From: Candidatus Krumholzibacteriia bacterium
GTDB lineage: Bacteria; Krumholzibacteriota; Krumholzibacteriia; Krumholzibacteriales; Krumholzibacteriaceae
Assembly: GCA_963836185.1 (NCBI GenBank)
Contig: CAWIIQ010000001.1
Coordinates: 1,152,001 to 1,216,000 of the forward strand
Length of the DNA: 64,000 nucleotides
Direction: 5' to 3'
The translations under genes and the position numbers were made by a program. Below are positions 7,081 through 30,599 of this stretch, piece by piece; position 1 is the stretch's first letter; the number at the start of each line of letters is the position of its first letter. A model generated the notes under the pieces. It did not search any database. It was not told the origin of the DNA and saw only the letters and a program-made list of their open reading frames with translations.

Positions 7081-8394
<1,314 letters not shown>

Positions 8395-8455
8395 GCTCGT
8401 TTTTTTCCTTTCGGACAAATTGTGGTCTGGAATCCTTTCGACTAATCTCTCACTC

Positions 8456-8484
8456 TTGACAGGATTAACCAAATTTATTATACT
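8456..8484 (+). promoter_or_regulatory. Sigma70 promoter of lysR-IMPase
   Basis: TTGACA (8456-8461), 17 nt, TATACT (8479-8484). Confidence 0.8.
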
Positions 8485-8494
8485 AATAAAAAGG

Positions 8495-8509
8495 ATAAGT
8501 AAAACTTAT
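8495..8509. promoter_or_regulatory. LysR-type T-N11-A operator
   Basis: Perfect inverted repeat ATAAGT-AAA-ACTTAT overlapping the lysR start; a second one, TTTATTA-TAC-TAATAAA, overlaps the -10. Confidence 0.65.
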
Positions 8510-9434
8510 GGATATGAGAGCCCTGAAATATATGCTCAGCGTAGAGGAGACTGGAAGCATCACAGCCGCCGCGAAGGCACATTTTGTGACACAGCCGGCT
8601 GTAAGCATCCAGCTCAAGAAACTTCAGGAGGATCTCGGAACAGACCTGTTCGAGGTCGTCGGCAGGGAGATAAGGTTTACATCGGCGGGGAGGATGGTTC
8701 TCGACTATGCGAGGCGGATGTACGCGCTCGAGAAGGAGATGGAGGGGGAGATATCGGGAATCACCGGGCTGGTGCGCGGAGAGGTGTCGATAGGGACGAT
8801 CGACGCGGCCAGCATCTATATCCTGCCGGCCGTCTATTCCTCGTTCAGCCGGAAATATCCAGGCATAGACCTGCAGGTGGATGTATCACCGACATTGCCC
8901 CTCGTTGAAAGGATGCTCGACGGGAAGCTCGATTTCGTCGTCGGGACACTTACGGGAGAGAAGAGGCCGGGAGTCGAAGAGATGGAGATCTTCAGGGAGA
9001 AGCTGATCCCGATAGCCCCGCCCGGCCATCCGGCCGCGGCGAAGCGCGGCGTCGACGTCGGAACCTTCGCGGGGTATCCGTTCATCTCCTTTCACCGCGA
9101 ATCATTGACGAGGCGGATGATCGAAGCGGCTCTCCTCGATATGGGAGTGACCCTCGAGGTAGCGATGGAGATAGACAGCCAGGAGGCGATAAAGAATCTT
9201 GTCGCCTCTGGCCTCGGCCTCTCGATCCTTCCGCACGAGACGGTGAGGGGGGAGATAGAGAGGGGCACACTTGCCAGTTCGAAGGTAAAGGGCCTGAAGA
9301 TAGAGCGCTCGATCGGGCTTATCATGCCTGGGCAGAGACATGTGACGGCGGCAGCGAGGGCCTTTCTCGATGTGATGAAAAACGAACTGAAGATAGATCT
9401 GCCCGCGGCAGAGGGAAGGGAAAGTGATGGATAA
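8508..9434 (+). CDS. LysR-family transcriptional regulator
   Basis: GSITAAAKAHFVTQPAVSIQLKKLQEDLG HTH; LysR substrate domain (IKNLVASGLGLSILP). Confidence 0.95.
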   Translation: MDMRALKYMLSVEETGSITAAAKAHFVTQPAVSIQLKKLQEDLGTDLFEVVGREIRFTSAGRMVLDYARRMYALEKEMEGEISGITGLVRGEVSIGTIDAASIYILPAVYSSFSRKYPGIDLQVDVSPTLPLVERMLDGKLDFVVGTLTGEKRPGVEEMEIFREKLIPIAPPGHPAAAKRGVDVGTFAGYPFISFHRESLTRRMIEAALLDMGVTLEVAMEIDSQEAIKNLVASGLGLSILPHETVRGEIERGTLASSKVKGLKIERSIGLIMPGQRHVTAAARAFLDVMKNELKIDLPAAEGRESDG

Positions 9435-10245
9435 AAGGACGGCAGCTGCGAAAGAGGCGGTGCTGGCCGCCGGAGAACTAGTAAGGGAGAGGTTCGGCGA
9501 GAGGGCCTGCCTCGGTGTCGAGGAAAAGGACAGGAACGACTTTGTGACGGCGACCGACAAGGCGAGCGAGAAACTGATAGTCTCGATGCTGACCCGGGCT
9601 TATCCCGATATCCCTGTCATGGCCGAAGAGGGCGGGGGAAAGGTCGGTGAGAAGCTCTTCTGGGTGATCGATCCCCTCGACGGGACGACAAACTTCATCC
9701 ACGGGTATCCCCAGGTCGGAGTGAGTGTCGCGCTTATAGAGGAGAGAAGGCCCATTGTCGGGGTTACATACGACCCGATCAGAGATGAGATCTTTACCGC
9801 TTCCAGAGGCGAGGGAGCATTCATCAACGGACGGCGTCTGTCCATCTCACCGGAGCAGAGTCTCGAGAAGTCCCTTCTCGGTACCGGGTTCCCTTTCCGC
9901 ACATATGAATATCTCGATCCCTATCTCGACACATTCAGGGACCTTTTTCTCAGGTGCCGCGGAGTGAGGCGGGCCGGCGCCGCGGTACTCGATCTCGCCC
10001 ACCTGGCCGCTGGAAGGCTCGAAGGATTCTGGGAGCTCTACCTCAAGCCGTGGGATATGGCGGCGGGGGCGCTGATGATCGAGGAGGCGGGAGGTATCGT
10101 GACCGATTTCTTCGGAGGCGGAGAATATCTTTCAGCTGGAAACATTGTCGCCGGTAACAGCGTCATACATGGGGAGATCGTCAAGGTGACGGAAGGATCG
10201 TTTACGAGGGAGTCGACCGCCGCTCTCGCTAACGGTCTCATATAG
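9427..10245 (+). CDS. suhB: Inositol monophosphatase family protein
   Basis: WVIDPLDGTTNF and KPWDMAAG motifs; overlaps the lysR stop. Confidence 0.92.
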   Translation: MDKRTAAAKEAVLAAGELVRERFGERACLGVEEKDRNDFVTATDKASEKLIVSMLTRAYPDIPVMAEEGGGKVGEKLFWVIDPLDGTTNFIHGYPQVGVSVALIEERRPIVGVTYDPIRDEIFTASRGEGAFINGRRLSISPEQSLEKSLLGTGFPFRTYEYLDPYLDTFRDLFLRCRGVRRAGAAVLDLAHLAAGRLEGFWELYLKPWDMAAGALMIEEAGGIVTDFFGGGEYLSAGNIVAGNSVIHGEIVKVTEGSFTRESTAALANGLI

Positions 10246-12940: not shown

Positions 12941-15136
12941 TCAGAAACGGTGTCCGAATCCGAACCAGAGCTTCATGCCGTTTCGTTCACTGCCCGAGAG
13001 GGTCAGTTCGGCCGGTCCCACAGGCGTGTCGTACGCGATGGTGCCGGCCCCACCGGTATAGGTATTCTCCTTTTTAAAGACATCGGCCCTGTCTTCTACA
13101 GCTGCGCCCATATTGAAATGGCCGGCGATAAGCCATCTGTGCGTTATTTCCAGGTGCATCTCGGCTCCGGCAAGGTAGGCGTTCGAGCCTGAGAACTCGA
13201 ATGGCTCGTATCCGTAGAACGAGACGTTACGCTCACCATAATAATCAAACCATGAAGTGATCCCGCCGAGATAGTACCTGTGGTGGGGGAGGGGCCTGCC
13301 GCCCCCGGTGTGCCCGTAAAGGAATCTGCCTCTCAGCGAGACGCGGCTGTGAATGGGGATGGCAGCCAGGAAACCGGCGTTTGCCCTGTTGTACGAGACA
13401 TCGTTTACAGACATCTCGGGGAAGTACTGGCCGGACGCCTTCAACTCGATCCCCCTGCGCGGCATCCAGGAGCGGTCCAGTGTATCGAGCCAGAAATCCC
13501 CGCCGGCGAAGAAGAGGCCCCCGGCCTCGGTCTCCGTCCCGGAAGGCGCTATATCCGGCCTTATGCTGTACCATTCCCCGCCGGCCGCAACCATGCACCG
13601 GAACATATAGCCCGGTTCGACTTCCGCAATCAGTGCCGCCCTGCCGGCCCTTACTCCCCATCTGCTCGTCCTTGTTCCGTCGTCGTATGACTCGATATAG
13701 TCGTCGACGTATTTTCCTCCCATCCCCGGCATCAGCCAGTGCCCCAGCCCGGCATCGATCGTATAGATCCCGAGCAGGTCTACCCGCTGGCTGAATACCA
13801 TGTCGAGATTGAGTGTCGAACCATGGCCTATCAGATTCTTCATCTGGGCTCCGAGGAGTACCGAGAATGACCAGCGCGTATCGTACCTCAGTCCGAGGCC
13901 GATATAGCCCGGCAGCTCTTCCTCTATATCGAGGACGAGGGTCGTGTCGTCGCCGTCCTCTTCGAAGCGGTACGATATCTTCGAGAAGTTGCCGGTGCTG
14001 TACATCCTCTGCAGCGCCCAGTCCATGTCGTCCGCCGTTATGGAAGCGGGGGCCTTGAATCCGATAAGCCTCGATACGATCTTCGATGAAACCATGGAAA
14101 GGCCGTCGAACCTTATCTTCGTTATATCGATCGATGTCACTGGGGTCCTGTCCATCTGTTCCGGGGGCTCGCGGAACCCTCCGGTTCTCTCGACCAGGGC
14201 GCGGATCTCGTCGATATGAGCGCGCGCAGCTTTCTCGCCCTGCTCGATTATAAAGGGGATGTTATCGAAGTCGAGGGTGCCAGTAGTTCCAAGGTCAGGT
14301 TTTATGTAGAGATCGCAAAACTCCTTCTGCTCGTCCAGCGTCGATCTCATCAGGATGTTGATTGTCTGATCGGTTATTTCAAGCAGGTTCTGGAGGCTGT
14401 CCGCCCCGACGAGTTCGCTGGATACATCGATACATATAACGATGTCGGCGCCGAGATTGAAAGCGTCGACAGTCGGGAGGTTCCTCACGAGCCCTCCGTC
14501 GACGAGAAGCACCCCGTCCCATTCGACAGGGGTGAAGGCTGTCGGTATAGCCATGCTTGCTCTCATGGCGTCCGCGAGGCTGCCGTTGTCGATCAAGTAC
14601 GGAGTACCTCGGGCTATGTCGGTTGCGACGCAGGCAAAATCACGAGGCAGCTCGCTGAAATCGTCTATCTCTATGACGGGCCATGTCAGTTCATAAAAGA
14701 GCCTGTGGATCTTCTGCCCCTTGATTATGCCGGAGGGGAGACCGACTCTTCCGTCGACGAAAGGGAACGAGAGAAGGTACCTGTCCCTGAAGTTCTTCTG
14801 GCGCATCGTCAGGTACCGGCGGTCGACAGTCTCCAGGAAGACATCGAACCAGTCGACGCCGTTGGCCATATCCTCGAGAAAGGCGGGGGAGTATCCTGCT
14901 GCGTAGAGCCCTCCGATGATCGAGCCCATGCTCGTCCCGGTGACGATATCGGCCTGGATCCCCTCCTCCTCGAAGACCTTCAGCACGCCTATATGGGCGA
15001 GGCCCTTGGCGCCGCCCCCGCTGAAGGCGATGCCGATCTTCGGCCTGTCCTGCCGCGAATCGGCGGCATGGAGGAGGCCTGTGAATGAGAAAAGGACTAT
15101 GACTGCGAGCAGCGACGTTCTGATATTGATTTTCAT
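12941..15136 (-). CDS. Patatin-like phospholipase with POTRA and Omp85-type barrel (PlpD/type Vd-like)
   Basis: SGGGAKG, GTSMG (GxSxG) and DGG motifs; POTRA-like segment; beta-strand-rich C-terminus ending in F; signal peptide. Confidence 0.9.
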   Translation of the reverse strand: MKINIRTSLLAVIVLFSFTGLLHAADSRQDRPKIGIAFSGGGAKGLAHIGVLKVFEEEGIQADIVTGTSMGSIIGGLYAAGYSPAFLEDMANGVDWFDVFLETVDRRYLTMRQKNFRDRYLLSFPFVDGRVGLPSGIIKGQKIHRLFYELTWPVIEIDDFSELPRDFACVATDIARGTPYLIDNGSLADAMRASMAIPTAFTPVEWDGVLLVDGGLVRNLPTVDAFNLGADIVICIDVSSELVGADSLQNLLEITDQTINILMRSTLDEQKEFCDLYIKPDLGTTGTLDFDNIPFIIEQGEKAARAHIDEIRALVERTGGFREPPEQMDRTPVTSIDITKIRFDGLSMVSSKIVSRLIGFKAPASITADDMDWALQRMYSTGNFSKISYRFEEDGDDTTLVLDIEEELPGYIGLGLRYDTRWSFSVLLGAQMKNLIGHGSTLNLDMVFSQRVDLLGIYTIDAGLGHWLMPGMGGKYVDDYIESYDDGTRTSRWGVRAGRAALIAEVEPGYMFRCMVAAGGEWYSIRPDIAPSGTETEAGGLFFAGGDFWLDTLDRSWMPRRGIELKASGQYFPEMSVNDVSYNRANAGFLAAIPIHSRVSLRGRFLYGHTGGGRPLPHHRYYLGGITSWFDYYGERNVSFYGYEPFEFSGSNAYLAGAEMHLEITHRWLIAGHFNMGAAVEDRADVFKKENTYTGGAGTIAYDTPVGPAELTLSGSERNGMKLWFGFGHRF

Positions 15137-15143
15137 GGCGGCA

Positions 15144-15172
15144 ATGCTAGCAGTAATCGGGATTCCGTGCAA
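15144..15172 (-). promoter_or_regulatory. Sigma70 promoter of the patatin gene, probably leaderless
   Basis: TTGCAC-N17-TAGCAT ends 7 nt before ATG 15136; no SD sequence. Confidence 0.5.
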
Positions 15173-15196: not shown

Positions 15197-15919
15197 TCAG
15201 ATGAACTTTTCCCTCTTCTGAAGATTGTACAGTCCCCAGAGGATAGCGATAATGCTTCCAACAGCGAGTATGATCCGGTTCTGGTATACGATCCCGGACC
15301 AGACGGCTTCAGTCATCTGGTCCGGCACCCTGAAAGGATTGAGGAAGAGGTTCCACTTGCTCTTCGAGAGGGACTCGGTGGCTATCCAGAACGCCATGCC
15401 GATGACGACCATTACAACCGCCGTCCCGTTACCGTTCCTTACGATCGTCGAGAACATGAATGAAAGGGCTCCGAGGAAGAAGATCGGGAACATCAGCTGG
15501 TAGACCATCTCGAGGATCGGCACCGATGCGAATACGACCGAGCTCAGGGCGGCGAGGACCACGAGAAGCACGAACTCGATCAGCCAGATAAGGGCCATCC
15601 TGGAGAGCCAGACCTTGTACCTGTAGTCGGGGATCCCGAAGAGTATCTCTATCATCCGTGAATCGACATCGTTCTGTATCCCGAAGGCTGTGGGGTAGAA
15701 GATCAGCAGGATTCCGGGGAAGAGGAGGATGTCAAAGACGTCATGAATGCCCGGATTGTTGTCGGAAGAGAAGAACGAGATCGCTCCCGCTGCGAGGAAG
15801 AAGATGAACGCGGCGAGCAGGAAGTATACGAACCTGTTGGCGAAGACGATCTTCAGGTTATACGAGGCTATCTTCCTCGCCGAAAAGAAAAGATTGCGTG
15901 CACGGTCAAACCTGCGCAT
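15197..15919 (-). CDS. ABC-2-type permease (about 6 TM)
   Basis: Six hydrophobic helices; DVDSRMIEILFGIP resembles the ABC-2 coupling region; start overlaps the upstream fusion gene. Confidence 0.75.
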   Translation of the reverse strand: MRRFDRARNLFFSARKIASYNLKIVFANRFVYFLLAAFIFFLAAGAISFFSSDNNPGIHDVFDILLFPGILLIFYPTAFGIQNDVDSRMIEILFGIPDYRYKVWLSRMALIWLIEFVLLVVLAALSSVVFASVPILEMVYQLMFPIFFLGALSFMFSTIVRNGNGTAVVMVVIGMAFWIATESLSKSKWNLFLNPFRVPDQMTEAVWSGIVYQNRIILAVGSIIAILWGLYNLQKREKFI

Positions 15920-18900
15920 CAGCTTCACCTCCCGCAGCTTCCTCTATCGCTGTCCTTGCTCCGAGTATGTCGCTTCCGGATGACCTGAGCAGCCAGAGGT
16001 AGGCATCCTCGAGTGTCGGCCTCGCCTCATGCGCGTCAGGAACGGGGCTCGCGTCTGCGAGGCACCTGACCTTGATCATCTCTCCGTCTCGCATGTGATG
16101 GACTACGACATGCTCTTTTCTGATCCTCTCGAAATCTCCCGGCGGCACGCTGAAGGTCCATACCTTCCCGGCCGCCGTGGCGGTCATCTTCGTCGGTTCA
16201 TCGAGATAGAGGAGCTGGCCTCTGTTGAGCACGGCCACGCGATTGCATGAGCTGTAGATATCCTCGATGATATGCGTCGAGAAGATGACGACCCTTTCCC
16301 TGCTCAGTTCGACGAGAAGGTTGCGGAACCTGATCCTCTCACGCGGGTCGAGGCCCGCTGTCGGCTCGTCGACCACGAGGATCCTCGGGAGGTGGAGAAG
16401 GATCTGCGCGATTCCGACCCGCTGTTTCATCCCGCCCGAGAATGCGCCGATCTTTCTTTCGGCATGTTCCTCTATATGCACAGCTTCGAGGACGTAGTCG
16501 ACCATCTCACGGCGTTTCTTCTCGTCGCCGAGCCCCTTGAGTATTGCCTGGTAGTCGAGAAACTCCCTTGCTGTCATGTTCTCGTACGTCCCGAATTCCT
16601 GCGGCAGGTAACCGATCAGCCCCTGCAGCTCCTCGCGTTTCTTAGACGTGTCGATCCCGTTTATGTAGACCTTTCCATACGACTGGTCGAGGATCCCGCA
16701 GATAACCCGCATCAGTGTCGTCTTGCCCGCTCCGTTCGGGCCGAGGAGGCCGAACATCCCGCTCCCGATCTCGAGTGAGACGCGATCGAGGGCCTTGAAC
16801 TGCTGCTTGCGCTTTCCAATCAGGGGGATCATCAGCACGAGTCGGTAAAGGGCCCGGCGTATCCCGGCGAACCTGCCCTCGACCCTCGCGATGTTTATCT
16901 TCTTCCTGTGCAGCCTGCGGGAGGTCGAGAAGATCGCCGCTGCGGGAAACCAGAGGATGGCGATAAATATCACAGCAGCGAGGTTGCCCCACTTCATGTA
17001 GAAGATGACGAGGTTCACGAGGGGGAAGAGCCAGATGAAACTCTTTGAAATAGTTCTCGCGATCCGGAAACGTGACAGCTGAGCGCTCCAGCATTTCCAT
17101 GCGTATATGAGGAAGAAGAAGAGGGCGTGTGAGAGGACGAAGGCCCAGAAGAATGAAGAGAGATAGAAATAGATGAAGTAGACCATGAATCCGAGAACGG
17201 GGAGCTGCCAGAGCAGATCGCCGGCATCGCTGGTTCGTATGTCTCCGCGGCGTTCCCTGATCCTGTTCCCCTTGTTCCATTCGCGCATGAACTTCGACGG
17301 CTGGTCATATATCTTGACGAGGTTGCGCACCGTGATCGTAATAGCGCTTTTGCGGTCGATGACCTTCTCAGACGCCTTTCTCAGGCTCGCCAGGATAAAC
17401 CAGGTGACAGCCGGGACGAGAAGTACGACCGTGGCGAAGAGGGCCGATCTCCAGATCAGTGATTCGATCTTTACCTGGACAAGCCAGATGCCGAGGACTC
17501 CCGCGACCAGCTGGCCGAGCTTGATCCTGATGTCCAGGCCCCGTATCCAGGCCATGGCCGAATCGAGGCCGGAGTAGACGACAGGTATGAAAACGAGGGT
17601 GAATATGGTGCTGACGGTCAGTCCGCCTATGACAGTGATCGCAAACGGCGCCCCGATCACCGAGATCTCTTCCTCCTTGCCCATCGCCAGTGGTATCATC
17701 GCAACGATCGTCGTGATCGCTGTTATGAGGATCGGTCTGACCCTCGCGTCGCCTGCCGTTATCAGGGCCCTCGTCGTGCGGTAGCCGCGGCGCTTCAGGA
17801 TCAGGGAGTAATCGATCAGTATGATCCCGTTGTTTACGACAACACCGAGGAGTATGAGGAACCCGGTCATCGTATAAGGATCGACGATAGATGTGCGTGT
17901 AAAGATCAGGAGCCAGAGGGATCCTATCGCGGCAAGAGGGATAGTGAACATCATCACAACGGGAGTCGTCAGCGACTCGAATACCGAAGCGAGTATCATG
18001 TAGATCAGGATGAAGGCAGCGAGGATGAGGAACTTGAACTCATCGATACCGGTGTCTTCCTCCACTATCTCCACGGCCATACCCTGCGGGACGACCAGTC
18101 CGGCGATCAGTTCCTCTATCTCGAGCTCGGCAGCTTCCTGCAGGTTTCTCGAGCCGTTTATCTCATCGATGAATGAATAGGTTATCTTGACCTGCTTTTC
18201 CTGGTTGACCCTGTTGATCGATGTCATCCCCCTTGTGTATACGACATCGGTTATGTCCTCAAGGTCGACGATGGCTCCAGAAGGGGATTCAAGTGACATC
18301 TCGCGAAGTTCATCAGCGCTGCGTTCCTCGACACCGTCACTTCTTATGATGATCTCGTATTCATCCGTCCCGTCCTTGAAGACCTGTCCGGTGGAATACT
18401 CCGGCTGGAAGGAGTTGAGCTCCATGCCTATCGAATTGAGGGTCAGGCCGTGCCAGCTAAGCATCGGCATATCGAACATCAGCTGTATCTCCGGGCTGCC
18501 GGGTGTCACGTCAAAATTCGCCGATGCCGTCGAGGCGAGATTATCGACATACTCGACGAGGTTGGAGGCGAACATCGACATCGCTTCGAAATCGTTTCCC
18601 TTTACTACGATACTCTTCTGCTGTCCTCCCAGCCCGAAGAATCCTCCCATCGCTCCGCCCATTCCGCCACCGCGTCTGCCCCTGTATCTTGTGCTGTTTG
18701 ACGGTTCCTCGAACGACACATCGCCGGTCCTGAAATCATGGAGCCGCTGCCTGGCGTCGCTTTTTACCTCGTGGATACTGCGGCCGTCGATTTCAGTGTA
18801 GTCTTCCTTCATAACGAGTGTGAGACGGGCATCCTCTTCATGAACCTCGACGAAAAGGTCCTCGGTCTCAGCGATCCCGGTAAGCCTTTCCTCCATATCG

Positions 18901-20630
18901 CCGACTGCGGCATCGGTCGATTCGAGTGTCGATCCGCGCTGCATGACGAGGAAGATATCGAACGATCCCGTTTCCTCGATCGTCGAGGAGCCGATACTGA
19001 GGCTGATACATAGTATGATGCTGATGAAAAAGATGATTATCGCGCCGACTGTCGTCCGGGCAGGGTATCTCATCCCCGTCTTGAGAAGGACGTGGTAGAT
19101 CTCCATCAGTCTTCCGCCCGATGACGAAGCGGGGGTGTAGTCGTGCCTCTTTCCCCTGGAAAGGAAGTAGTGGCTGACCATCGGCACGAGCAGGAGGGCT
19201 GCCACGAGCGATACGAGAAGGGTCGATACTATCGATACACCCACATGCTTCCCGAGACTCTGCACGATGATGTTCGACGAGAATACGAAGGGGAGGAATA
19301 CCGTGATCGTAGTCGCCGTCGCAGCTACGATCGAGCGCCATACCTCGCTCACCCCCTGGACCACCGCTGTGTCGGCGTTGAGGCCCTTCGAGACGAGCCT
19401 GTATATGTTCTCCAGGACGACGACGCCGTTGTCGAGAAGCATCCCGATGGCAAGCGCTATACCGATCAGGGTCAGGCTGTTTATCGATATACCAGCAGCG
19501 TAGAAGAAGTTCATCGCGATATAGACCGAGATAGGGATCGACAGGGCGATGACGAATACGAGCCGCAGGTTCCTCAGGAAGAACCAGAGGATCACTATGG
19601 CGAGCAGTCCGCCGATCACTGCGAGCCTTACTATCAGGCTGATATTGTCCCGGATCGATTCGGCTCCGTCGTACTGGACGACGAGCTCCATCTCCTGGCT
19701 CTTTATCTCTCTGTTGATCCTTTCGACTGCCTCCAGGGCCCGGTTGGAGACATCGATCATGTTGACCATCTGGTCCTTCTTGAGGGTCAGCGAGACGGAC
19801 TCCATCCCGTTTACCCTTGTGATGCTTTCCTGCTTCTTGACTCCGAAGTAGATCTCCGCTATGTCGCCGAGCAGTACGGGACCCTCGGGATGGACGACGA
19901 TATTCTCGAGGTCGGTCAGGTCGAGATACTCGGTCACAACGTTGACGAAATATTTCCGATCCTTCTCGACAGCGTGGCCGACGAATCTGTTCGAGGCTCC
20001 GTTGCTCGATATGAGTCTCGAGATCCTCGAAGGGGTAAGTCCGTACGCTTCGATAGCGGCGTCATCGAGGACGATGTCGACCGACTTTTCGCGCCCTCCG
20101 GAGACCTCGACGTCGGAGATACCCTCGATACTTTCAAACTTCTGCACGATCTCCCGGTCGACAACCTCACGGACGCGTTCAAGTCCGCCGGTTCCTCTGA
20201 CTTCGAGCCTCATCAGCTCGTTCGATATCGACTGGACATCGAACTGGAAGACCTGGACGATATACTCTTCGGGTATCGTCGACCTTATCTCGGTGATCTT
20301 CTCCTCGAGCTTGAGGTAGGCGTACTTGACGTCGATCCCTTGTTCATACTCGATTGTTATGCTGGCGCGTCCGCGGCTGACCCAGGATTCGATCTTCTCG
20401 ATTCCCTCGAGAGTGCCCGCGGCCTCCTCGATCGGGATGACCGCTTCCTTCTCGAGTTGGACAGGATCGACGGGCCGGGAGCGGACCATCACGACGAGGT
20501 AGGGAAATTCGATGTCTGGGATAAGCTCGACGGGGAGCCGTCTCTGCGAGATGACACCCAGCATCACAAGCCCGATGAAGAGCATGCTGATAAGGGTCTT
20601 GCGGCGGATTATGAAATTGCCAGCGCTCAT
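15906..20630 (-). CDS. RND permease fused to extra TM helices and a C-terminal ABC ATPase (1574 aa)
   Basis: RND motifs GMLLDNGVVVLENI, GVVVNNGIILID and RVRPILIT; ABC Walker A GPNGAGKT, signature FSGGMKQR, Walker B VVDEPT, H-loop STH; one continuous frame. Confidence 0.92.
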   Translation of the reverse strand: MSAGNFIIRRKTLISMLFIGLVMLGVISQRRLPVELIPDIEFPYLVVMVRSRPVDPVQLEKEAVIPIEEAAGTLEGIEKIESWVSRGRASITIEYEQGIDVKYAYLKLEEKITEIRSTIPEEYIVQVFQFDVQSISNELMRLEVRGTGGLERVREVVDREIVQKFESIEGISDVEVSGGREKSVDIVLDDAAIEAYGLTPSRISRLISSNGASNRFVGHAVEKDRKYFVNVVTEYLDLTDLENIVVHPEGPVLLGDIAEIYFGVKKQESITRVNGMESVSLTLKKDQMVNMIDVSNRALEAVERINREIKSQEMELVVQYDGAESIRDNISLIVRLAVIGGLLAIVILWFFLRNLRLVFVIALSIPISVYIAMNFFYAAGISINSLTLIGIALAIGMLLDNGVVVLENIYRLVSKGLNADTAVVQGVSEVWRSIVAATATTITVFLPFVFSSNIIVQSLGKHVGVSIVSTLLVSLVAALLLVPMVSHYFLSRGKRHDYTPASSSGGRLMEIYHVLLKTGMRYPARTTVGAIIIFFISIILCISLSIGSSTIEETGSFDIFLVMQRGSTLESTDAAVGDMEERLTGIAETEDLFVEVHEEDARLTLVMKEDYTEIDGRSIHEVKSDARQRLHDFRTGDVSFEEPSNSTRYRGRRGGGMGGAMGGFFGLGGQQKSIVVKGNDFEAMSMFASNLVEYVDNLASTASANFDVTPGSPEIQLMFDMPMLSWHGLTLNSIGMELNSFQPEYSTGQVFKDGTDEYEIIIRSDGVEERSADELREMSLESPSGAIVDLEDITDVVYTRGMTSINRVNQEKQVKITYSFIDEINGSRNLQEAAELEIEELIAGLVVPQGMAVEIVEEDTGIDEFKFLILAAFILIYMILASVFESLTTPVVMMFTIPLAAIGSLWLLIFTRTSIVDPYTMTGFLILLGVVVNNGIILIDYSLILKRRGYRTTRALITAGDARVRPILITAITTIVAMIPLAMGKEEEISVIGAPFAITVIGGLTVSTIFTLVFIPVVYSGLDSAMAWIRGLDIRIKLGQLVAGVLGIWLVQVKIESLIWRSALFATVVLLVPAVTWFILASLRKASEKVIDRKSAITITVRNLVKIYDQPSKFMREWNKGNRIRERRGDIRTSDAGDLLWQLPVLGFMVYFIYFYLSSFFWAFVLSHALFFFLIYAWKCWSAQLSRFRIARTISKSFIWLFPLVNLVIFYMKWGNLAAVIFIAILWFPAAAIFSTSRRLHRKKINIARVEGRFAGIRRALYRLVLMIPLIGKRKQQFKALDRVSLEIGSGMFGLLGPNGAGKTTLMRVICGILDQSYGKVYINGIDTSKKREELQGLIGYLPQEFGTYENMTAREFLDYQAILKGLGDEKKRREMVDYVLEAVHIEEHAERKIGAFSGGMKQRVGIAQILLHLPRILVVDEPTAGLDPRERIRFRNLLVELSRERVVIFSTHIIEDIYSSCNRVAVLNRGQLLYLDEPTKMTATAAGKVWTFSVPPGDFERIRKEHVVVHHMRDGEMIKVRCLADASPVPDAHEARPTLEDAYLWLLRSSGSDILGARTAIEEAAGGEADAQV

Positions 20631-23600
20631 CGGCTCCGATCCAGGACGGAATAGACACAGGGTATTACTATGAGTGTAAGTAAGGTCGATGTCACCAGGC
20701 CGCCGATAACCGCCAGCGCCATCGGTGAGCGGAGTGAAGCTCCTTCGCCGAATCCCAGGGTTAGGGGGAGGAGGGCGAGGATCGTCGTGGCGCTCGTCAT
20801 GATGATCGGCCGTATCCTGATCCTTCCTGCGGCTACTATCGCGTCAGCTTTCGCCATACCCTCGCGCCTGAACCTGTTGATCGCGTCGATAAGGATGATC
20901 GAATCGTTTACCGCGATGCCGACGAGCATGATGATGCCGATGTAGGCCATGATGCTCAGCGGACGGCCGAGGATGAAGAAGATCAGCACCGCGCCGACAC
21001 CGGCGAGCGGGATCGTCAGCAGGATCGCGAACGGATGGATCAGCGACTCGAACTGCGAGGCGAGGACCATGTAGACGAGTATTATCGACAGCAGAAGGGC
21101 GAACCGGAGATCGCGGAACTCCTCCTGCCTGCGGGCCTCCTCGCCTGTGATCGCGAGTCTGTAACCTTGAGGGACATCAAGTGACGCGAAGTTGCTGTTG
21201 ATCTCCCCGATGGCGTGGTCGAAGGGCCTGCCCTCGTTCTTGTGCGCCGAGACGATAGCTGCTCTCATCTGTCCGCGTCTGTTAATCTCGCGCGGGGCGG
21301 TGCCTCTTTCGAGGCGGGCAAGTTCATCGACCCGGAACTTTCTCCCCGATGAATCGATATATATCCTGTCGAGTTCCCCGATGCTCACATCGGGAAGCAT
21401 CACCGTGATGTCTGTTTTTTCTCCGCCACGGTCCCATTCTCCGGCGCTTCGTCCGGTGAGCCGGGACTCGAGCGTCCCGGTGACCTCGCCGAGGCTGACC
21501 TGGAGCATCCCCGCCCTGAGGCGGTCGACTACGACATTTATCTCTGGCCGTCCGTGCTCAAGCGACGTCTCGACATTATAGAGGTCGTCTATGCCGGCGA
21601 GCCGTCCCTTTACATCTTCAGCCATGCTCGTGAGAGTCTCGAGGTCGTCCCCCTTGATCTCGACGACGATCGGGGCGGATTCGGCCCCGAGGATCGAGCG
21701 AAGGGCTGTCTGGTCCTGTACGAGTCTTGACTCGACTCCCGGTATCGATGACAGCGTTGCTCCGAGGCCCGCCATGACCTGGCCCGAACTACGGCCGTGT
21801 CCTTCCGCAAAGCGGATCTTGACGACAGCTGTGTTCTCGTCCTGGAAGACAGAGGTCACGTCGCTGCCGATACCTGTTACCGGCCCGGCAGTGCTGAAAA
21901 GGGTCTCGATGTCGTCGCCGAAGGTGCCCCTGATCATCTCTTCGAGTCCCCTTACCGTGCCGTCTGTCCTCGTGAGGTCGGAACCTTCAGGCAGGGTGAG
22001 GTATATCGAGTACTCGTCGGCGTCGGAATCGGGAATGAACTCGCTGCCGACTATCGGCAGGAGGAGGGCCGCAATGACTACGAGCGCGACGGCTGCGATG
22101 ATGACCGTCCAGCGTTTCTCGAGGGCCTTTGCCAGGAGAGCGCCGTACCGTTCGAATTTCATTGGTTCGGCCGCAGCTGCCTTATCCTTCCCCTTCAGGA
22201 ACCTTGCGGCGAGCATCGGGATGATCAGTATCGCGACGGCGAGGGAGGAGAGAAGGGCGAATGCGACTGTCCATGCCTGATCCTTGAAGAGTTCTCCCGC
22301 GGCGCCGTGGAGGTATACTATCGGGAGGAATACGACGATCGTCGTTATCGTCGATGCCGTGATCGCGCCGCCGACCTGCGCCGTACCGGAGGCCGCTGCC
22401 TCCCTGACGCTCATCCCCGATTCGATATTTCTTACGATATTCTCGACGACGACGATGGCATTGTCGACGAGCATCCCCGCTCCGAGGGCGAGCCCCCCGA
22501 GTGTCATTATATTGAGCGACAGCCCCTTGAAGTACATCAGGTTGAAGGTCGCTACTATCGAGACAGGTATCGAGATGCTGATGATCGCCGTGGTACCTAT
22601 CCTTCTGAGGAATACGAAGAGTATCAGTATCGCGAGAAAGATCCCGATGAGCGCGGTCTGCCTGACCTCGCCTATCGAGGCGTTGATGAACTGCCCCTGA
22701 TCCTGGATGACGACGATCTCGTATCCGGGGAGGGCTTTCTCGATACGGTCGAGGGCGACGGCCAGATTCTCGCTCGCCTCAACCGTGTTGAATCTCATCT
22801 CCTTGTATATCGAAAGTCCGAGGGCCCTCGTGCCGTTGAGCCTGACGATGTTCTCCGGCTCCCTGTTGCGCAGCGAGACGTCGGCAACGTCATGGAGGTA
22901 TACAGGCGCCTTCTCGGTCGAGCTTTCAGCCTGTTGCCCAGTGCCGGATGAGAGCTGCTGGCCCTCGGCCGGTTCTTTCCAGGCGAGGATGATCTGCCTG
23001 ATATCCTCGATCGTCTCCATCTCCGAGACGCCCTTGATCAGGTACGATATCCCCATCTCGGTGACGGTGCCGCCGGAAGCCTCGACATTGTAATTCTGTA
23101 TCTCGGCCGCGATGGCATCGACGGTCAGGCCGTACGCTTCGAGCATGTACGAATCTGTGAGTACGATCACTTCCTTCGTCTCGCCGCCCGATATCTCGAC
23201 ACCTGCGATACCCTCGATACGCACCAGCTCGTTACGGATGTAGTTCTCCGCAATCCTGCGAGGGCCGTCCATGTCGGTCACTTCCGGATTGACCAGGGCT
23301 ACCGTCATCACGGGATCGGAGTTTGCGTCGTGCTGGGTTATCGTCATCTCGAGGTCGGAGTCACCCTGCCCGAAGTCGGCCGCGGCCTTCTGCAGATTGA
23401 GGAAGGCCTCGTCCATGTCCATGTCCCAGCCGTACTCGACCGTGATCCTCGCAGCACCGACTCTTATCACGGAGGATACCTCCGTAACGCCCTTCTGCGT
23501 GAAGATCATGTTCTCCATCTGATCGACGTACTGCTTCTCCATCTCCTCGGGAGGGCGCTCGCCCGCCTCGACTTCGATGAAGAGGCGCGGGTTGTTCAGG

Positions 23601-23719
23601 TCGGGGAAGAGGTCGATACCGAGTCGCTGGAACGATATCCAGCCGAGCAGGAACACCCCGAGGACGATCATCGTCACCGTGACCGGATGGTTGACGGAAA
23701 AGTCCGAAATCTTCCTCAT
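20627..23719 (-). CDS. RND (AcrB/AcrD/AcrF family) permease
   Basis: GMLVDNAIVVVENI, QFESLIHP and RIRPIIMT motifs; 1030 aa; start and stop overlap neighbours. Confidence 0.95.
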   Translation of the reverse strand: MRKISDFSVNHPVTVTMIVLGVFLLGWISFQRLGIDLFPDLNNPRLFIEVEAGERPPEEMEKQYVDQMENMIFTQKGVTEVSSVIRVGAARITVEYGWDMDMDEAFLNLQKAAADFGQGDSDLEMTITQHDANSDPVMTVALVNPEVTDMDGPRRIAENYIRNELVRIEGIAGVEISGGETKEVIVLTDSYMLEAYGLTVDAIAAEIQNYNVEASGGTVTEMGISYLIKGVSEMETIEDIRQIILAWKEPAEGQQLSSGTGQQAESSTEKAPVYLHDVADVSLRNREPENIVRLNGTRALGLSIYKEMRFNTVEASENLAVALDRIEKALPGYEIVVIQDQGQFINASIGEVRQTALIGIFLAILILFVFLRRIGTTAIISISIPVSIVATFNLMYFKGLSLNIMTLGGLALGAGMLVDNAIVVVENIVRNIESGMSVREAAASGTAQVGGAITASTITTIVVFLPIVYLHGAAGELFKDQAWTVAFALLSSLAVAILIIPMLAARFLKGKDKAAAAEPMKFERYGALLAKALEKRWTVIIAAVALVVIAALLLPIVGSEFIPDSDADEYSIYLTLPEGSDLTRTDGTVRGLEEMIRGTFGDDIETLFSTAGPVTGIGSDVTSVFQDENTAVVKIRFAEGHGRSSGQVMAGLGATLSSIPGVESRLVQDQTALRSILGAESAPIVVEIKGDDLETLTSMAEDVKGRLAGIDDLYNVETSLEHGRPEINVVVDRLRAGMLQVSLGEVTGTLESRLTGRSAGEWDRGGEKTDITVMLPDVSIGELDRIYIDSSGRKFRVDELARLERGTAPREINRRGQMRAAIVSAHKNEGRPFDHAIGEINSNFASLDVPQGYRLAITGEEARRQEEFRDLRFALLLSIILVYMVLASQFESLIHPFAILLTIPLAGVGAVLIFFILGRPLSIMAYIGIIMLVGIAVNDSIILIDAINRFRREGMAKADAIVAAGRIRIRPIIMTSATTILALLPLTLGFGEGASLRSPMALAVIGGLVTSTLLTLIVIPCVYSVLDRSR

Positions 23720-26284: not shown

Positions 26285-29200
26285 CTAGCGTAATACCCAT
26301 TTGACCGCGTCGGCGATGACCTTCTCGGCATCCGATTCGTTGGTCAGCTCTATTTTAGCCTCTCCCTGGGAGATGTAGTATGAGCCGAGATAGTTCCAGC
26401 CGTCGTCGGCGCCGTTGAGGTCGAGTTCGGTCTCCTCGATCCCGTCATCGTGATATATGAGGAAGTGGAGTTTTCCGTAATTCTCCTCGTGATCCCCGCC
26501 CCTGTGTCTCCTCCAGGGGGCTGTGATTTTGGCTGCATGATAGTAGATGTCGTAATGCCCGCTCTTTTTCATGTCAGTGGTGAACGCGGCTTTGAGATCC
26601 CCTTTCCCGGCCGATATGAAATGGGCCGAACGGATCTGGTTCCCGTAGAACTTCGAGTCGATCGTCGGCTGCCATTTATTTGTCTCGCCACCCCAGAAAC
26701 GCATCCCGACATATTTCACATCTTCCTCGCGCTCGCCGCGGGGGATAAGTCTCTTCAGGAGGCTCCTCGAGGTGCCCGATGAGAAGGTGAATCCGGGGTC
26801 CTCGTTGTCGACCACTGTCTCTCCCTGCTCGACGAGGCTTACCGGCCTGTCGCTGATCCTCTCACCGTCGAACGGAACGGCCTTCTTCTTCTCATCGAGT
26901 TTCTTGGGCAGGTCGATGTCGAGGAGCACAGGCAGGTTGCGCGAGACGAGGGTGTTGATACTCAGCTTCGAGGGCTGGAAAGTCAGTACGAATCCCAGTT
27001 CTTTCGTCTCTCCGGCCTTTATCGGTACGTATTTGCTGTAATCCTCTCCCATCGTCATATTCGCGGTCATCATCCTCCGCATCCTGCCGCCCCTGCCTTC
27101 TCTGACGTTCAGGTCCATCTGCTGGAAAGTGAACTGGATAAGGCCGTCCGTATCCTCGCTGTTGGTCACGCTAAACCGGACCTGGAACTTCTCGCGCTCC
27201 CCGTCCAGAAAGCTGTAAATCTCGACCGACGACATCAGGAAGCCTGGAATGGCGATGTCGTCGTACCATCCCGCCGCTATCGACGGAAGGTCTATTCCGA
27301 GTCTTTCACTGAGGGCGGAGACAAGTTCATCTCCGGGCACGTTGCCGTGCTTGTGTTTGTCGAAGAGCTCGGCGAGCAGTGCATCGATATCTTCGCGGTC
27401 TGCGGCGCTTTCCATCATCCGGAAGAGGAAGCTTCCCTTCGATTTCAGGGCGTAGTGGGACATCTTCCTGTATTCCGGATCGAGAACGATGTCGCGCAGG
27501 CTCATCTTGGAAAGCTTGTCGTTTACCCTCTCCTCGATGGTCATCCCGTATCTCATCCTTGTCCAGGTCGAGGTGTTGTCCTCGAGTCTCGACGCGTACC
27601 ATGATTCGAGCGCCATGCCGAGCCACGGCATCTCCTTCGAATCTATCCCGTTGCGGAAGGTAAGCATATTGGGGAAGACGTTGAACGAAGGGGTCCTGCC
27701 GAACGGATCGTCCGAGCCCCAGTCCATCTGTCCGAAACTGCCAGTGAGGGTGCCGTTGACGAAGGCGGCCAGCCAGCCCGCCTGCGTCTCCACCTCGGAG
27801 ACATCCTCGTTGCTTCTGTCGTTCATCCTCTCCGTCCGGCGTTTCATGCGCCTGAAGTCGGTGGTCCTCCCCGTGATGCCTCTTTCCTGTATGAATACCA
27901 TCTCGGGCTGGACGTTCTCCTGGCTTACCGACCAGGCGTGGTGGAAGATGAAGAAATGAACCGGCACCTCGACCAGTGAGAATCTCGGGAAGGGGTACTC
28001 GAGATTGAGGTTGTTCTCGTAGGTCTGTCTGAGGTCCCTGATCATCGACTCCAGGGTATCCCCGACCTCGGTGAAAGACTCCGACCAGTAGTCATTTCCC
28101 CGGCGGCAGTAGATGTTGTACTCGGTCGAGTCGACCACTGTCGTCTGCCGCTCGAAGTCGGCGATGACAAGTGAGATCGCGGGGAGGGGGAATTCAGGCC
28201 TGAAGCTGAAGTTGCCCGGTGAGCCGGATGTCGATGCACCCTGGGAGACTGCCGTCAGCTGCGATGAAGTAGTGACGTCGAGTGAGAAATCGATGAAATC
28301 GTGTCTCCGGTCGAGCGGCCTCGAGGCGACGAAGCCCGGCCCGGCTGCCGGGTACCATATCGTTTCCGGGGTGAGCAGGACGCAGGACGGATGTATGTAC
28401 GAGAATCTCCTGCCCAGGTTGAAGAGCAGGGTCCAGTTGGGGGAATTGAGAGTCTCGATGTCTATGTCTGTGTATAGAGCGTCCTCGTTTATGACGCCTC
28501 TCCACCTGATCTCGAATGAATCCTCCGCGCCCGGTGCGAGGGGAGCCTGCGGCAGGACGGTCAGTACCTGTTCATCACGCTCATACTTAAGGGCCCCCGA
28601 CGATCCGGTAAGTTCCGTAACGGCCAGCCCCGGATTGAGGCTGAATATATAGGCGGAAAGGGGCGCTTCCGTATCGTTGCGCACAGTGATCTTCGCTGCC
28701 GCGTCGATCAGTCCGCCTTCATGCATGAGGTCGATCGCGCATGAGAGAGGTGTAGCCACCGGTCTCTCCGCGGCAGTCTCGGCCGCCGCCAGAACCCGCT
28801 CGCGCTGGTGCTCGGCGGTTCCATCTTTTCCCGTATAGACGACGATCAGCACGATGGCAAGCGCCGCGCAGGCAAGACCGAAGATACGGGCGAAGCCTGT
28901 CATGACCCTCGACTGGGGGAGCCTGCGGATCATGACGATAGTCAGGGCGATGAACGACAGCCCGAAGAGGAGGTAGATCGACCGCTGCACGAGCATGTGC
29001 GTGATATCGGCAAAGCCGGTGAACTGCGAGTAGGTCATGGGTACATTGAAGCCGATGTAATCGTAGACGTTGTGGATCTTCGGCCCGAGGTAGAAGAGTG
29101 TCATCCCTATATATCCGAGAAGCACTATGAATGTCACAGCCTGGTTGCGGATCGTGACCATCAGCAGGAAGGCGAATCCGAGGATGAAGATCAGTGTCGG

Positions 29201-29665
29201 GAAGCTTATAATGACGGGATATATGAGGTAGGCGATCCCGGCGAATGTCGTATCGGCAAAGAATACGTTGAATACGAAGCCGATGAGCAGGATCACGACA
29301 TTGAGAAGAAGGAACATCGCCAAGATCCCGACCGTCTTGCCGATGACGTAATCTGTGTTCGTCATCGAGCGCATGTAGACGACCTCGGTCGTGTCGAGCT
29401 TCTTGTCACGCTTGAGGAAGTCGGAGGCGAGGAAGACCGCGATGATCGCCTGCGCCATGTTGAGCACCAGGATGTTCATGTAGGGTATCGTCGTCGGTAA
29501 CCCCTGGAAGCCCCAGGGAGCGTGGGTGACGTTTGAGAGGGTACCGAAGTCGTAGAAACCTATGCCCGCAACGGAGAGGATCGAAAAGATCCGAAAGAAC
29601 CAGCTCCTCCACAGTGTCTTCGCCTCGAATTTCGCCACTGTGAGGATGTTGTAGACAGATATCAT
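26285..29665 (-). CDS. ABC-2-type permease fused to an M1-aminopeptidase-like ectodomain lacking HEXXH and a C-terminal golvesin/xanthan-lyase-like beta-sandwich
   Basis: About 7 N-terminal TMs; FSLNPGLAV, WYP and YPFPRFSLVEVP M1-like segments; VVDNEDPGF...GWNYLGSY...VIADAVKW C-terminus. Confidence 0.78.
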   Translation of the reverse strand: MISVYNILTVAKFEAKTLWRSWFFRIFSILSVAGIGFYDFGTLSNVTHAPWGFQGLPTTIPYMNILVLNMAQAIIAVFLASDFLKRDKKLDTTEVVYMRSMTNTDYVIGKTVGILAMFLLLNVVILLIGFVFNVFFADTTFAGIAYLIYPVIISFPTLIFILGFAFLLMVTIRNQAVTFIVLLGYIGMTLFYLGPKIHNVYDYIGFNVPMTYSQFTGFADITHMLVQRSIYLLFGLSFIALTIVMIRRLPQSRVMTGFARIFGLACAALAIVLIVVYTGKDGTAEHQRERVLAAAETAAERPVATPLSCAIDLMHEGGLIDAAAKITVRNDTEAPLSAYIFSLNPGLAVTELTGSSGALKYERDEQVLTVLPQAPLAPGAEDSFEIRWRGVINEDALYTDIDIETLNSPNWTLLFNLGRRFSYIHPSCVLLTPETIWYPAAGPGFVASRPLDRRHDFIDFSLDVTTSSQLTAVSQGASTSGSPGNFSFRPEFPLPAISLVIADFERQTTVVDSTEYNIYCRRGNDYWSESFTEVGDTLESMIRDLRQTYENNLNLEYPFPRFSLVEVPVHFFIFHHAWSVSQENVQPEMVFIQERGITGRTTDFRRMKRRTERMNDRSNEDVSEVETQAGWLAAFVNGTLTGSFGQMDWGSDDPFGRTPSFNVFPNMLTFRNGIDSKEMPWLGMALESWYASRLEDNTSTWTRMRYGMTIEERVNDKLSKMSLRDIVLDPEYRKMSHYALKSKGSFLFRMMESAADREDIDALLAELFDKHKHGNVPGDELVSALSERLGIDLPSIAAGWYDDIAIPGFLMSSVEIYSFLDGEREKFQVRFSVTNSEDTDGLIQFTFQQMDLNVREGRGGRMRRMMTANMTMGEDYSKYVPIKAGETKELGFVLTFQPSKLSINTLVSRNLPVLLDIDLPKKLDEKKKAVPFDGERISDRPVSLVEQGETVVDNEDPGFTFSSGTSRSLLKRLIPRGEREEDVKYVGMRFWGGETNKWQPTIDSKFYGNQIRSAHFISAGKGDLKAAFTTDMKKSGHYDIYYHAAKITAPWRRHRGGDHEENYGKLHFLIYHDDGIEETELDLNGADDGWNYLGSYYISQGEAKIELTNESDAEKVIADAVKWVLR

Positions 29666-29717: not shown

Positions 29718-30599
29718 TCAGTTTTCCGACTGGTTCTCCATGAAATATACGTAGGCATGCTCAAGGTTCGGCTCGACCTCTTCGCCCGGCCACCTGCCCG
29801 TGTTGTCGGCTACGACATGGACCTCCCAGCCGTCGTCGGCAGGAACAGTCGATATCACGGGGAATGTAGTCTTGATCTCTTCGAGTTCGGTGTCGAGCGC
29901 GCGGATCTTCCATGCCTTGCCGCGGGCCATGTCGACCAGCCCGTCCGGCGAGCCGCGGAAGACGACGCTGCCCCGGTCGAGCAGGGCCATGTTGTGGCAT
30001 GAGCTCGATATGTCGCCCACTATATGTGTAGAGAGGATTATCGCGATGTCCTTCTGGCCCATGTCGGCCAGCAGGTTCCTGAACCTGATACGCTCCTCGG
30101 GATCGAGGCCGGTTGTCGGCTCGTCGACGACTATGATCTTCGGATCGCCGATAAGCGCCTGGGCGATCCCTAGCCTGCGCTTCATCCCGCCGGAGAGCTT
30201 GTTGGCCAGCCTGTCACGCACGTCGTAGAGGCCGACCTGCTCGAGCATCTCGCCTACTTCCTTCGTCCTTTTCTTTTTGTCCTTGAGACCGGCAAGGCGC
30301 GCAACGTAGTCGAGGAACTCCCACGTCGTGAGCTTTGAGAAGAACCTGAATTCCTGGGGGAGGTATCCGAGCATCGATCTTATCTCGCGCCGGTTCCTCT
30401 GCAGGTCGAAATCGTTTACTCTTACGGTGCCGCCTGTCGGCTTCATCAGTGTGACCAGGATACGCATCAGGGTCGTCTTGCCCGCGCCATTCGGCCCGAG
30501 CAGGCCGAACATCCCGCTCCCTATATCGAGGTCCACACCAGACAGGGCAGTCGTACCGCCCTTGTAGGTCTTGCTCAGTCCTTCGACCGATATTTTCAT
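29718..30599 (-). CDS. ABC transporter ATP-binding protein
   Basis: GPNGAGKT, LSGGMKRR, VVDEPT and STH motifs; GGAGG RBS. Confidence 0.96.
   Translation of the reverse strand: MKISVEGLSKTYKGGTTALSGVDLDIGSGMFGLLGPNGAGKTTLMRILVTLMKPTGGTVRVNDFDLQRNRREIRSMLGYLPQEFRFFSKLTTWEFLDYVARLAGLKDKKKRTKEVGEMLEQVGLYDVRDRLANKLSGGMKRRLGIAQALIGDPKIIVVDEPTTGLDPEERIRFRNLLADMGQKDIAIILSTHIVGDISSSCHNMALLDRGSVVFRGSPDGLVDMARGKAWKIRALDTELEEIKTTFPVISTVPADDGWEVHVVADNTGRWPGEEVEPNLEHAYVYFMENQSEN

Follow-up and report, generated by a model that had tools for sequence, protein, structure and literature searches.

We describe a gene in which a resistance-nodulation-division (RND) permease and an adenosine triphosphate (ATP)-binding cassette (ABC) ATPase form a single polypeptide. 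It lies on the reverse strand of a 64,000-nucleotide stretch (the window, whose coordinates are used throughout) from Candidatus Krumholzibacteriia bacterium (GCA_963836185.1, contig CAWIIQ010000001.1, positions 1,152,001-1,216,000). RND pumps are described as driven by ion gradients, and ABC transporters as driven by ATP. The fusion gene is real, old and conserved, and the hybrid that it encodes is apparently unstudied; in databases the protein goes under the generic label of an RND permease, and at JGI under AcrB plus ATPase. No published description of the fusion or of the gene cassette around it was found in the open literature, a search that left subscription journals, TCDB and preprint supplements outside its reach. 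With modest confidence, we favour a model in which a heterodimeric type V (ABC-2) transporter is tethered by the fusion to a pump made of two RND paralogs, an adaptor and a channel, with the ATP-driven step and the RND step acting in series.

The reading frame is uninterrupted for 1574 codons (15906-20630, reverse strand), and Pfam recognizes both partners, ACR_tran at residues 5-1020 (1018 of 1021 model positions) and ABC_tran at residues 1282-1425. When the junction and the ATPase (residues 960-1560) served as the query, PF00873 and PF00005 occurred together in all of the best 120 of 949 hits, 112 of which were 1500-1700 residues long; 20 full-length representatives span 26-52% identity. Contigs from two close relatives, both from a single study, bridge the junction: one (X3, record 21) aligns over 16960-19776, spanning 17300-17600 without a gap, and the other (X4, record 29) aligns over 16718-18713 with one compensating gap pair at 17876/17880 and no net indel. 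The original prediction had proposed an in-frame fusion, and had suggested full-length homologs and an indel check across 17300-17600 as ways to examine it; the open frame, the homologs and the bridging contigs bear the proposal out. An artefact, or a recent accidental read-through of two genes, is barely credible: the junction does fall outside the coverage of a near-identical run (X1), but the 112 full-length homologs, the 20 divergent representatives, the occurrence in cultured isolates and the bridging contigs all speak against it, as does an ATPase that is incomplete unless its upstream part is included.

The motifs on which the prediction drew are all present, namely GMLLDN (D400) and RVRPIL (R963) in the permease, and Walker A GPNGAGKT (1297-1304), LPQE (Q1344), FSGGM, VDE (D1421/E1422) and H1453 in the nucleotide-binding domain (NBD). 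Twelve hydrophobic peaks at the expected positions correspond to the RND fold of 12 transmembrane (TM) helices with two large periplasmic loops, and six additional predicted helices bring the total to 18. Short uncharged loops alternate with loops rich in Lys and Arg, which places the fused NBD on the cytoplasmic side. The predicted order of permease, extra helices and NBD holds in outline, except that the first β-strand and A-loop of the NBD (residues 1099-1108) precede four of the six extra helices.

The NBD is split within its first hairpin. The A-loop Tyr is the adenine-stacking residue of ABC NBDs, and in the free ATPase of the same cassette it lies with strand 1 about 25 residues ahead of Walker A. 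The equivalent stretch of the fusion lies approximately 170 residues upstream of the rest of the ATPase, with K1106 in 113 of 113 fusions, Y1108 in 112 of 113 and Tyr or Phe at position 1108 in all of them. A profile of this 12-residue stretch, built on 55 free ATPases and run over all sequence upstream of Walker A, gave a best match that preceded Walker A by 180-229 residues in 143 of 143 fusions (a set with many kin), compared with 30 residues in the free protein. An AlphaFold2 model of residues 951-1551 (mean pLDDT 78.8, pTM 0.60) contains a strand at the displaced position, and its structural alignments to solved NBDs begin at model residue 145-148 and cover whole chains; for 1vpl, 234 of 238 residues aligned from chain residue 2 onwards (Z 28.0, rmsd 1.6). 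Because the alignments start at the displaced strand and extend over entire NBD chains, strand 1 is predicted to return to the ATPase sheet. The split ATPase is accordingly modelled as refolding into a normal NBD in the cytoplasm, with four helices looped out of its first hairpin, and two helix bundles, TM13-14 and TM15-18, would keep it at the membrane. An NBD that tolerates four membrane helices beside its A-loop is unusual for ABC structure.

Each catalytic residue of the fused NBD (Walker A, Q-loop, signature, Walker B Asp-Glu, D-loop and H-loop) is invariant in 113 of 113 fusions, and the motifs are intact in 20 of 20 diverse representatives, down to 26% identity; the sequences thus support an ATPase with its catalytic motifs intact and invariant. 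The best curated models, GldA (184 bits against a cut-off of 403) and DrrA (170 against 312), miss their cut-offs, as do all other families, and the closest folds are TM_1403, ABCA7 and NosF. Judged by these nearest relatives (DrrA, GldA, TM_1403, NosF and ABCA), both NBDs of the cassette are of the type V kind. The four-helix insert matches no Pfam family in more than one of 39 members, no PDB entry and nothing usable in the Atlas. That it might be a degenerate ABC membrane domain was rejected in sequence-level searches, which gave no similarity to either ABC-2 subunit (probability 0.3%) and no family, and in which a known fold could have escaped notice. A stand-alone family of insert plus NBD was not found among 13 shorter hits, 11 of them on contigs below 5 kb, fragments that cannot exclude one; non-full-length representatives of at least 340 residues are collinear with parts of the fusion.

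The fusion belongs to a cassette of seven genes arranged head to tail in the order free ATPase, 1126-residue membrane protein, outer-membrane factor, adaptor, unfused RND, fusion and 243-residue membrane protein, their spacing in the window ranging from -23 to +52 bp (Table 1). At least 35 fusion loci were present among 80 loci kept from species genomes. Scored as far as each contig reaches, every one of the six neighbours keeps its place throughout, save for the outer-membrane factor at a single locus. Of 151 genomes from the same phylum, 25 carry the insert and 25 the small permease, and 24 are common to both; in the two exceptions, the fusion lies at a contig end or the small-permease gene is broken. 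In a sample of 301 Bacteroidota genomes, where kin are not independent, insert and small permease occur in the same 3. The parts list is two NBDs and two probable ABC-2-type membrane domains, no more, together with a two-paralog RND pump; the former would make up one complete heterodimeric ABC transporter, joined to the RND pump by the fusion.

Several loci depart from this pattern. Of all the loci, the Latescibacterota cassette L044 branches deepest; in it, no outer-membrane factor gene separates the big permease from the adaptor. Locus L038 has a cassette with that gene in a metagenome-assembled genome labelled Eubacteriales, where misbinning or transfer is possible. At L023, L029 and L033, several cassette genes are in pieces (in L023 the fusion as well), which sequencing errors or decay may explain. 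A broken small-permease remnant (G020:C5:18720-19074) in a 97% complete genome where the fusion insert was not found is possibly a decayed cassette.

The six N-terminal helices of the 1126-residue protein match ABC2_membrane_2 in 17 of 29 members. For the 243-residue protein, ABC2_membrane_3 matches in 4 of 37 members, the Atlas neighbours are named ABC-2 permeases (0.97-0.99), and a profile alignment to the membrane domain of the big protein is collinear but weak (E 0.0047, probability 7.5%); it is likely the second ABC-2 (type V) membrane subunit, as far as its sequence goes. The periplasmic part of the big protein adopts an M1 aminopeptidase fold in its model (pLDDT 82.9; Foldseek E 1e-22), with IRAP followed by ERAP1, F3 and PepN as the closest structures at a TM-score of ~0.4 and an rmsd of 8-9, and the HEXXH zinc motif is present in 0 of 24 members. 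Its C-terminal Golvesin_C domain is also known from xanthan lyase. A paralog of the 1126-residue protein (31-32% identity) is encoded elsewhere in the genome (G000:C2:299848-303206) as two open reading frames of 751 and 364 residues, with no RND gene in the stretch listed; from the starts of their sequences, we take its neighbours to be kdsA-, kdsD-, lptC- and lptB-like.

These features (two NBDs with two membrane subunits, the kept gene order, the co-occurrence and the type V likeness of the NBDs) support the series model, and the probable type V membrane subunits in the cassette give the fused ATPase a natural partner. The fused NBD would dimerize with the free NBD under both ABC-2 membrane subunits, while the fusion and the unfused RND would assemble, by analogy with MdtB2C, into a heterotrimer. 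One tethered NBD per RND pump would then recruit one ABC transporter. ATP hydrolysis may move, lift or flip a substrate out of the inner membrane and onto the pseudo-aminopeptidase domain in the periplasm. That domain would pass the substrate on to the RND porter domain, and export would proceed by way of the adaptor and channel. The nature of the substrate is the weakest step: a peptide-bearing amphiphile, such as a lipopeptide, lipoprotein or antimicrobial peptide, seems most likely, a guess made from the peptide-binding fold only. Two precedents can be cited: DrrABC and MmpL7 combine a type V ABC transporter and an RND protein on one cargo (PMC11539658), and two-paralog RND trimers are known from MdtB2C (PMC4462101, PMC4338810).

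When aligned to MdtB and MexB chains, the fusion has D400 at the position of AcrB D407, N401 at D408, N933 at K940, R963 at R971 and T970 at T978. D400, R963 and T970 occur in every one of the 113 fusions; in the same set the D408 position is Asn in 110 and Ser in 3, and the K940 position is Asn in 112 and a gap in 1. The full D407/D408/K940 and R971/T978 proton relay is thus incomplete, and scores for the curated AcrB-type (HAE-1) family, 457 and 315 bits, lie below cut-offs of 1250. In AcrB, substitution of D407, D408, K940 or R971 abolishes export (PMC8277102). The original prediction that both energy modules appear functional is not sustained for the pair: the ATPase motifs are intact, but the permease keeps only the D407, R971 and T978 equivalents and has Asn at the other two positions. 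The RND step may instead run on a one-aspartate, ion-coupled relay, perhaps linked to Na+ by analogy with clade H, one member of which needs that ion (PMC10872679).

An ATP-powered RND, in which the ABC ATPase is stapled into the membrane via its adenine-binding hairpin and drives the pump cycle directly or through the pseudo-peptidase arm, strikes us as rather unlikely, and we are similarly doubtful that the ABC module is a motor whose NBD closure, relayed via TM13-18 or that arm, replaces or supplements ion coupling. Membrane anchors flank strand 1 and the A-loop Tyr of the NBD, a site at which nucleotide binding might exert a pull on helices, and NosF, whose NosDFY system works mechanically, is among the folds closest to this NBD. 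The D408 and K940 equivalents are absent from both RNDs of the cassette (29 of 30 unfused partner RNDs have the Asp-Asn and Asn pattern), and MmpL7, which lacks the relay, is proposed to act with DrrABC (PMC11539658). However, three non-fused RNDs of the same genome, with no Walker A-bearing open reading frame in the surrounding stretches listed, have the same Asp-Asn and Asn pattern. Since non-fused paralogs share it, this relay need not signal ATP drive, and its loss is ruled out as proof of it. The invariance of D400, R963 and T970, conservation of TM8-12 on a par with the NBD, and linker and insert helices that vary in both sequence and length also argue against an ATP-driven cycle. If true, this would be the first case of an RND transporter that ATP energizes or gates, and would unite the RND and ABC superfamilies in a new class of machine spanning the envelope. 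Among the other RND systems of the genome (G000:C1:139620-147037, C1:1918082-1922346 and C2:67509-70592) are a second tandem pair and a single RND with Asp-Asn and Asn, as well as one RND without the TM4 Asp, which has Thr-Asn there and Ala at the T978 position.

The single adaptor gene and single channel gene that serve both transporters could be read differently, with the ABC transporter exporting through them and the RNDs mainly assembling the duct, or with the two acting as parallel pumps for different cargo. ABC-adaptor-channel pumps such as YbhFSR exist (PMC8277102), and a scaffold role has been proposed for MmpL7 (PMC11539658). Such an arrangement is nevertheless improbable, given the strong conservation of the RND membrane core (0.79-0.83) and an adaptor that scores as RND-type (TIGR01730). 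Moreover, aminopeptidase-fold domains are not known to act as adaptor docks. Loss of the M1 zinc site in 24 of 24 members with retention of the fold, as expected of a binding domain, and a covalent tether suited to direct control might also indicate that the ABC pair and pseudo-aminopeptidase sense a periplasmic peptide and switch an ion-driven RND on or off, moving no cargo themselves. We consider this very doubtful, as the cassette contains neither a kinase nor a regulator gene and both ATP sites are canonical, as in working transporters.

Series operation of the ABC and RND steps remains our preferred reading, and the following points weigh against it. With the D408 and K940 equivalents absent, ion coupling may play no part in the RND step. 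Conservation is lowest in the insert (0.39, compared with 0.72 for the NBD core), which fits a tether and is no proof of one. The 2:1 stoichiometry is drawn by analogy only, and the RND pair of the cassette is not MdtBC; the ABC-2 assignment of the small permease is weak by sequence (4 of 37 members, probability 7.5%). Conserved downstream neighbours that could hint at the substrate were sought, and none occurred at more than 4 of 33 loci; the few that recur look like housekeeping genes.

The original prediction also proposed that a duplicated ATPase had been captured by the RND, and pointed to the free ATPase at 29718-30599. Identity between the two is 43% (120/276), a value that is not special since the fused ATPase is about as close to an unlinked ATPase of the same genome (42%) and to stand-alone ATPases of other phyla (39-48%). 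In a tree of 44 of 121 rows, from which long-branch and broken rows were left out, the fused NBDs form one clade (100/100) and the free NBDs of cassettes another (96/85), both spanning phyla; the two group together at 90/89 along with two long outsiders, and forced monophyly of fused and free NBDs is not rejected in the approximately unbiased test (p = 0.10). Capture of a duplicate is thus neither borne out nor rejected. The separate cross-phylum clades rule out a recent duplication of the neighbouring ATPase; any duplication would predate the spread over phyla, so an ancient one is possible from the tree. A single ancient fusion event would fit the same topology.

The cassette combines features of several known systems. 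As in MdtABC-TolC and MuxABC-OpmB, an adaptor is followed by two tandem RND paralogs, and among solved structures MdtB matches the RND part best (E 2e-69). A division of labour between paralogs is documented for MdtBC-type pumps (PMC4462101, PMC4338810). MdtABC, in contrast, lacks both an ATPase and an ABC partner, the relay of MdtB is Asp-Asp (TM4) and Lys (TM10) where the fusion has Asp-Asn and Asn, and the fusion scores only 258 against a cut-off of 1584 for MdtB and 252 against 1774 for MdtC, which places it outside both orthologous groups. In mycobacterial export of PDIM (phthiocerol dimycocerosates), DrrABC and MmpL7 pair a type V ABC transporter that has two different membrane subunits with an RND of non-canonical relay, both needed for one cargo; these are separate polypeptides, with no direct contact shown in that study (PMC11539658), whereas the fusion is one. 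MmpL7 also belongs to the MmpL family, while the fusion is AcrB-like (ACR_tran 523 bits, MMPL 39), and the mycobacterial system has one ATPase gene, no adaptor or TolC-like channel, and a position inside a lipid biosynthesis cluster, unlike a cassette without a conserved downstream neighbour in 33 loci. The type V transporters NosDFY, GldAFG, DrrAB and Wzm-Wzt share its ATPase subfamily, C-terminal extension and large periplasmic partner domain, and have six-helix ABC-2-type subunits like the two probable ones of the cassette, but here four membrane helices interrupt one of the NBDs, which is also joined to an RND. In YbhFSR-YbhG, too, the genes encode an ABC transporter together with an adaptor, and the pump works across the envelope (PMC8277102), though without RND subunits. 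Compared by description, the HAE-4 or clade G-H RND permeases form a large group that is frequent in Bacteroidetes and marine strains and has received little study; the study set reaches 1637 residues, so such fusions may be in it unremarked, and the main text contains no word beginning with "ABC" (PMC10872679). The system works most like a covalent DrrABC plus MmpL7 on an MdtABC-like chassis, and is a member of neither.

Table 1. Coordinates of the fusion gene, its parts and the other cassette genes in the window (residue numbers refer to the fusion protein; the last column gives loci with the gene in place).
Feature	Position	Strand	Basis	Loci
RND::split-NBD fusion gene, 1574 aa, 18 predicted TM helices	15906..20630	-	Open reading frame, Pfam, hydropathy, model	
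RND permease part, residues 5-1020, 12 TM	17571..20618	-	Pfam ACR_tran; MdtB/MexB alignment; conservation	
Predicted TM13-TM14 hairpin joining RND to ATPase, residues 1034-1087	17370..17531	-	Hydropathy, model helices, positive-inside pattern	
NBD strand β1 and A-loop (ITVRNLVKIY, 1099-1108), shifted upstream	17307..17336	-	Conservation, profile test, structural alignment	
Insert of ~168 residues in NBD β1/β2 hairpin, four predicted TM helices (1136-1156, 1160-1184, 1189-1214, 1217-1243)	16800..17303	-	Model; family searches	
NBD core: Walker A (16719-16742), Q-loop, signature, Walker B DE, D-loop, H-loop	16191..16799	-	Pfam, conservation, structure	
NBD C-terminal β-rich extension, common to free ATPase and TM_1403/NosF-type ATPases	15984..16190	-	Alignment, model, fold search	
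243-aa membrane protein, likely ABC-2 (type V) subunit 2; overlaps fusion end by 23 bp	15197..15928	-	Pfam, Atlas, profile	33/33
Second, unfused RND permease, 1030 aa, 29% identity to fusion, D-N / N relay	20627..23719	-	Pfam, alignment	31/31
Periplasmic adaptor (membrane fusion protein), 349 aa	23719..24768	-	TIGR01730 above cut-off	31/31
Outer-membrane factor (TolC-like), ~499 aa	24772..26271	-	PF02321	30/31
ABC-2-type membrane subunit 1, 1126 aa, periplasmic M1-aminopeptidase-fold domain without HEXXH, Golvesin_C	26285..29665	-	Pfam, model	29/29
Free ABC ATPase, 293 aa, all motifs intact	29718..30599	-	Pfam, motifs	26/26

In the window, a patatin-POTRA-Omp85 gene of PlpD-like architecture (12941-15172, reverse strand) begins 24 bp after the cassette and was rejected as an eighth part, being absent from all 26 other loci with room for it. 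Genes for an inositol-phosphate synthase-like protein, a LysR-type regulator and an inositol monophosphatase-like protein lie together at 7081-10245, and two overlapping open reading frames of 273 and 315 residues (35500-36895, forward strand) are, from their motifs, presumably a TrkH-type potassium uptake gene broken by a frameshift.

The fusion is present in at least five phyla, gut commensals included. Sources among the 120 homologs listed of 949 include Krumholzibacteriota (the closest named ones listed), KSB1, Calditrichaeota, Latescibacteria and Bacteroidales, whereas the name Bacteroides thetaiotaomicron does not occur among those 120. The fusion's spread is patchy, with 25 of 151 genomes in its own phylum, 3 of 301 in the Bacteroidota sample (the genome at its centre included) and 9 of 121 in the genus of that central genome. 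Cultured carriers belong to Draconibacterium, Prolixibacter, Maribellus, Marivirga, Bacteroides (sp. 224) and Parabacteroides, the strains named being of Prolixibacter bellariivorans, Draconibacterium mangrovi, Marivirga and Parabacteroides gordonii. Cooperation between RND and ABC transporters has so far been inferred genetically, from DrrABC and MmpL7, and a single covalent machine was not found in the searchable literature. By fixing the two together, the cassette opens the hand-over from an inner-membrane ABC step to a trans-envelope RND step to direct tests in strains held in culture.

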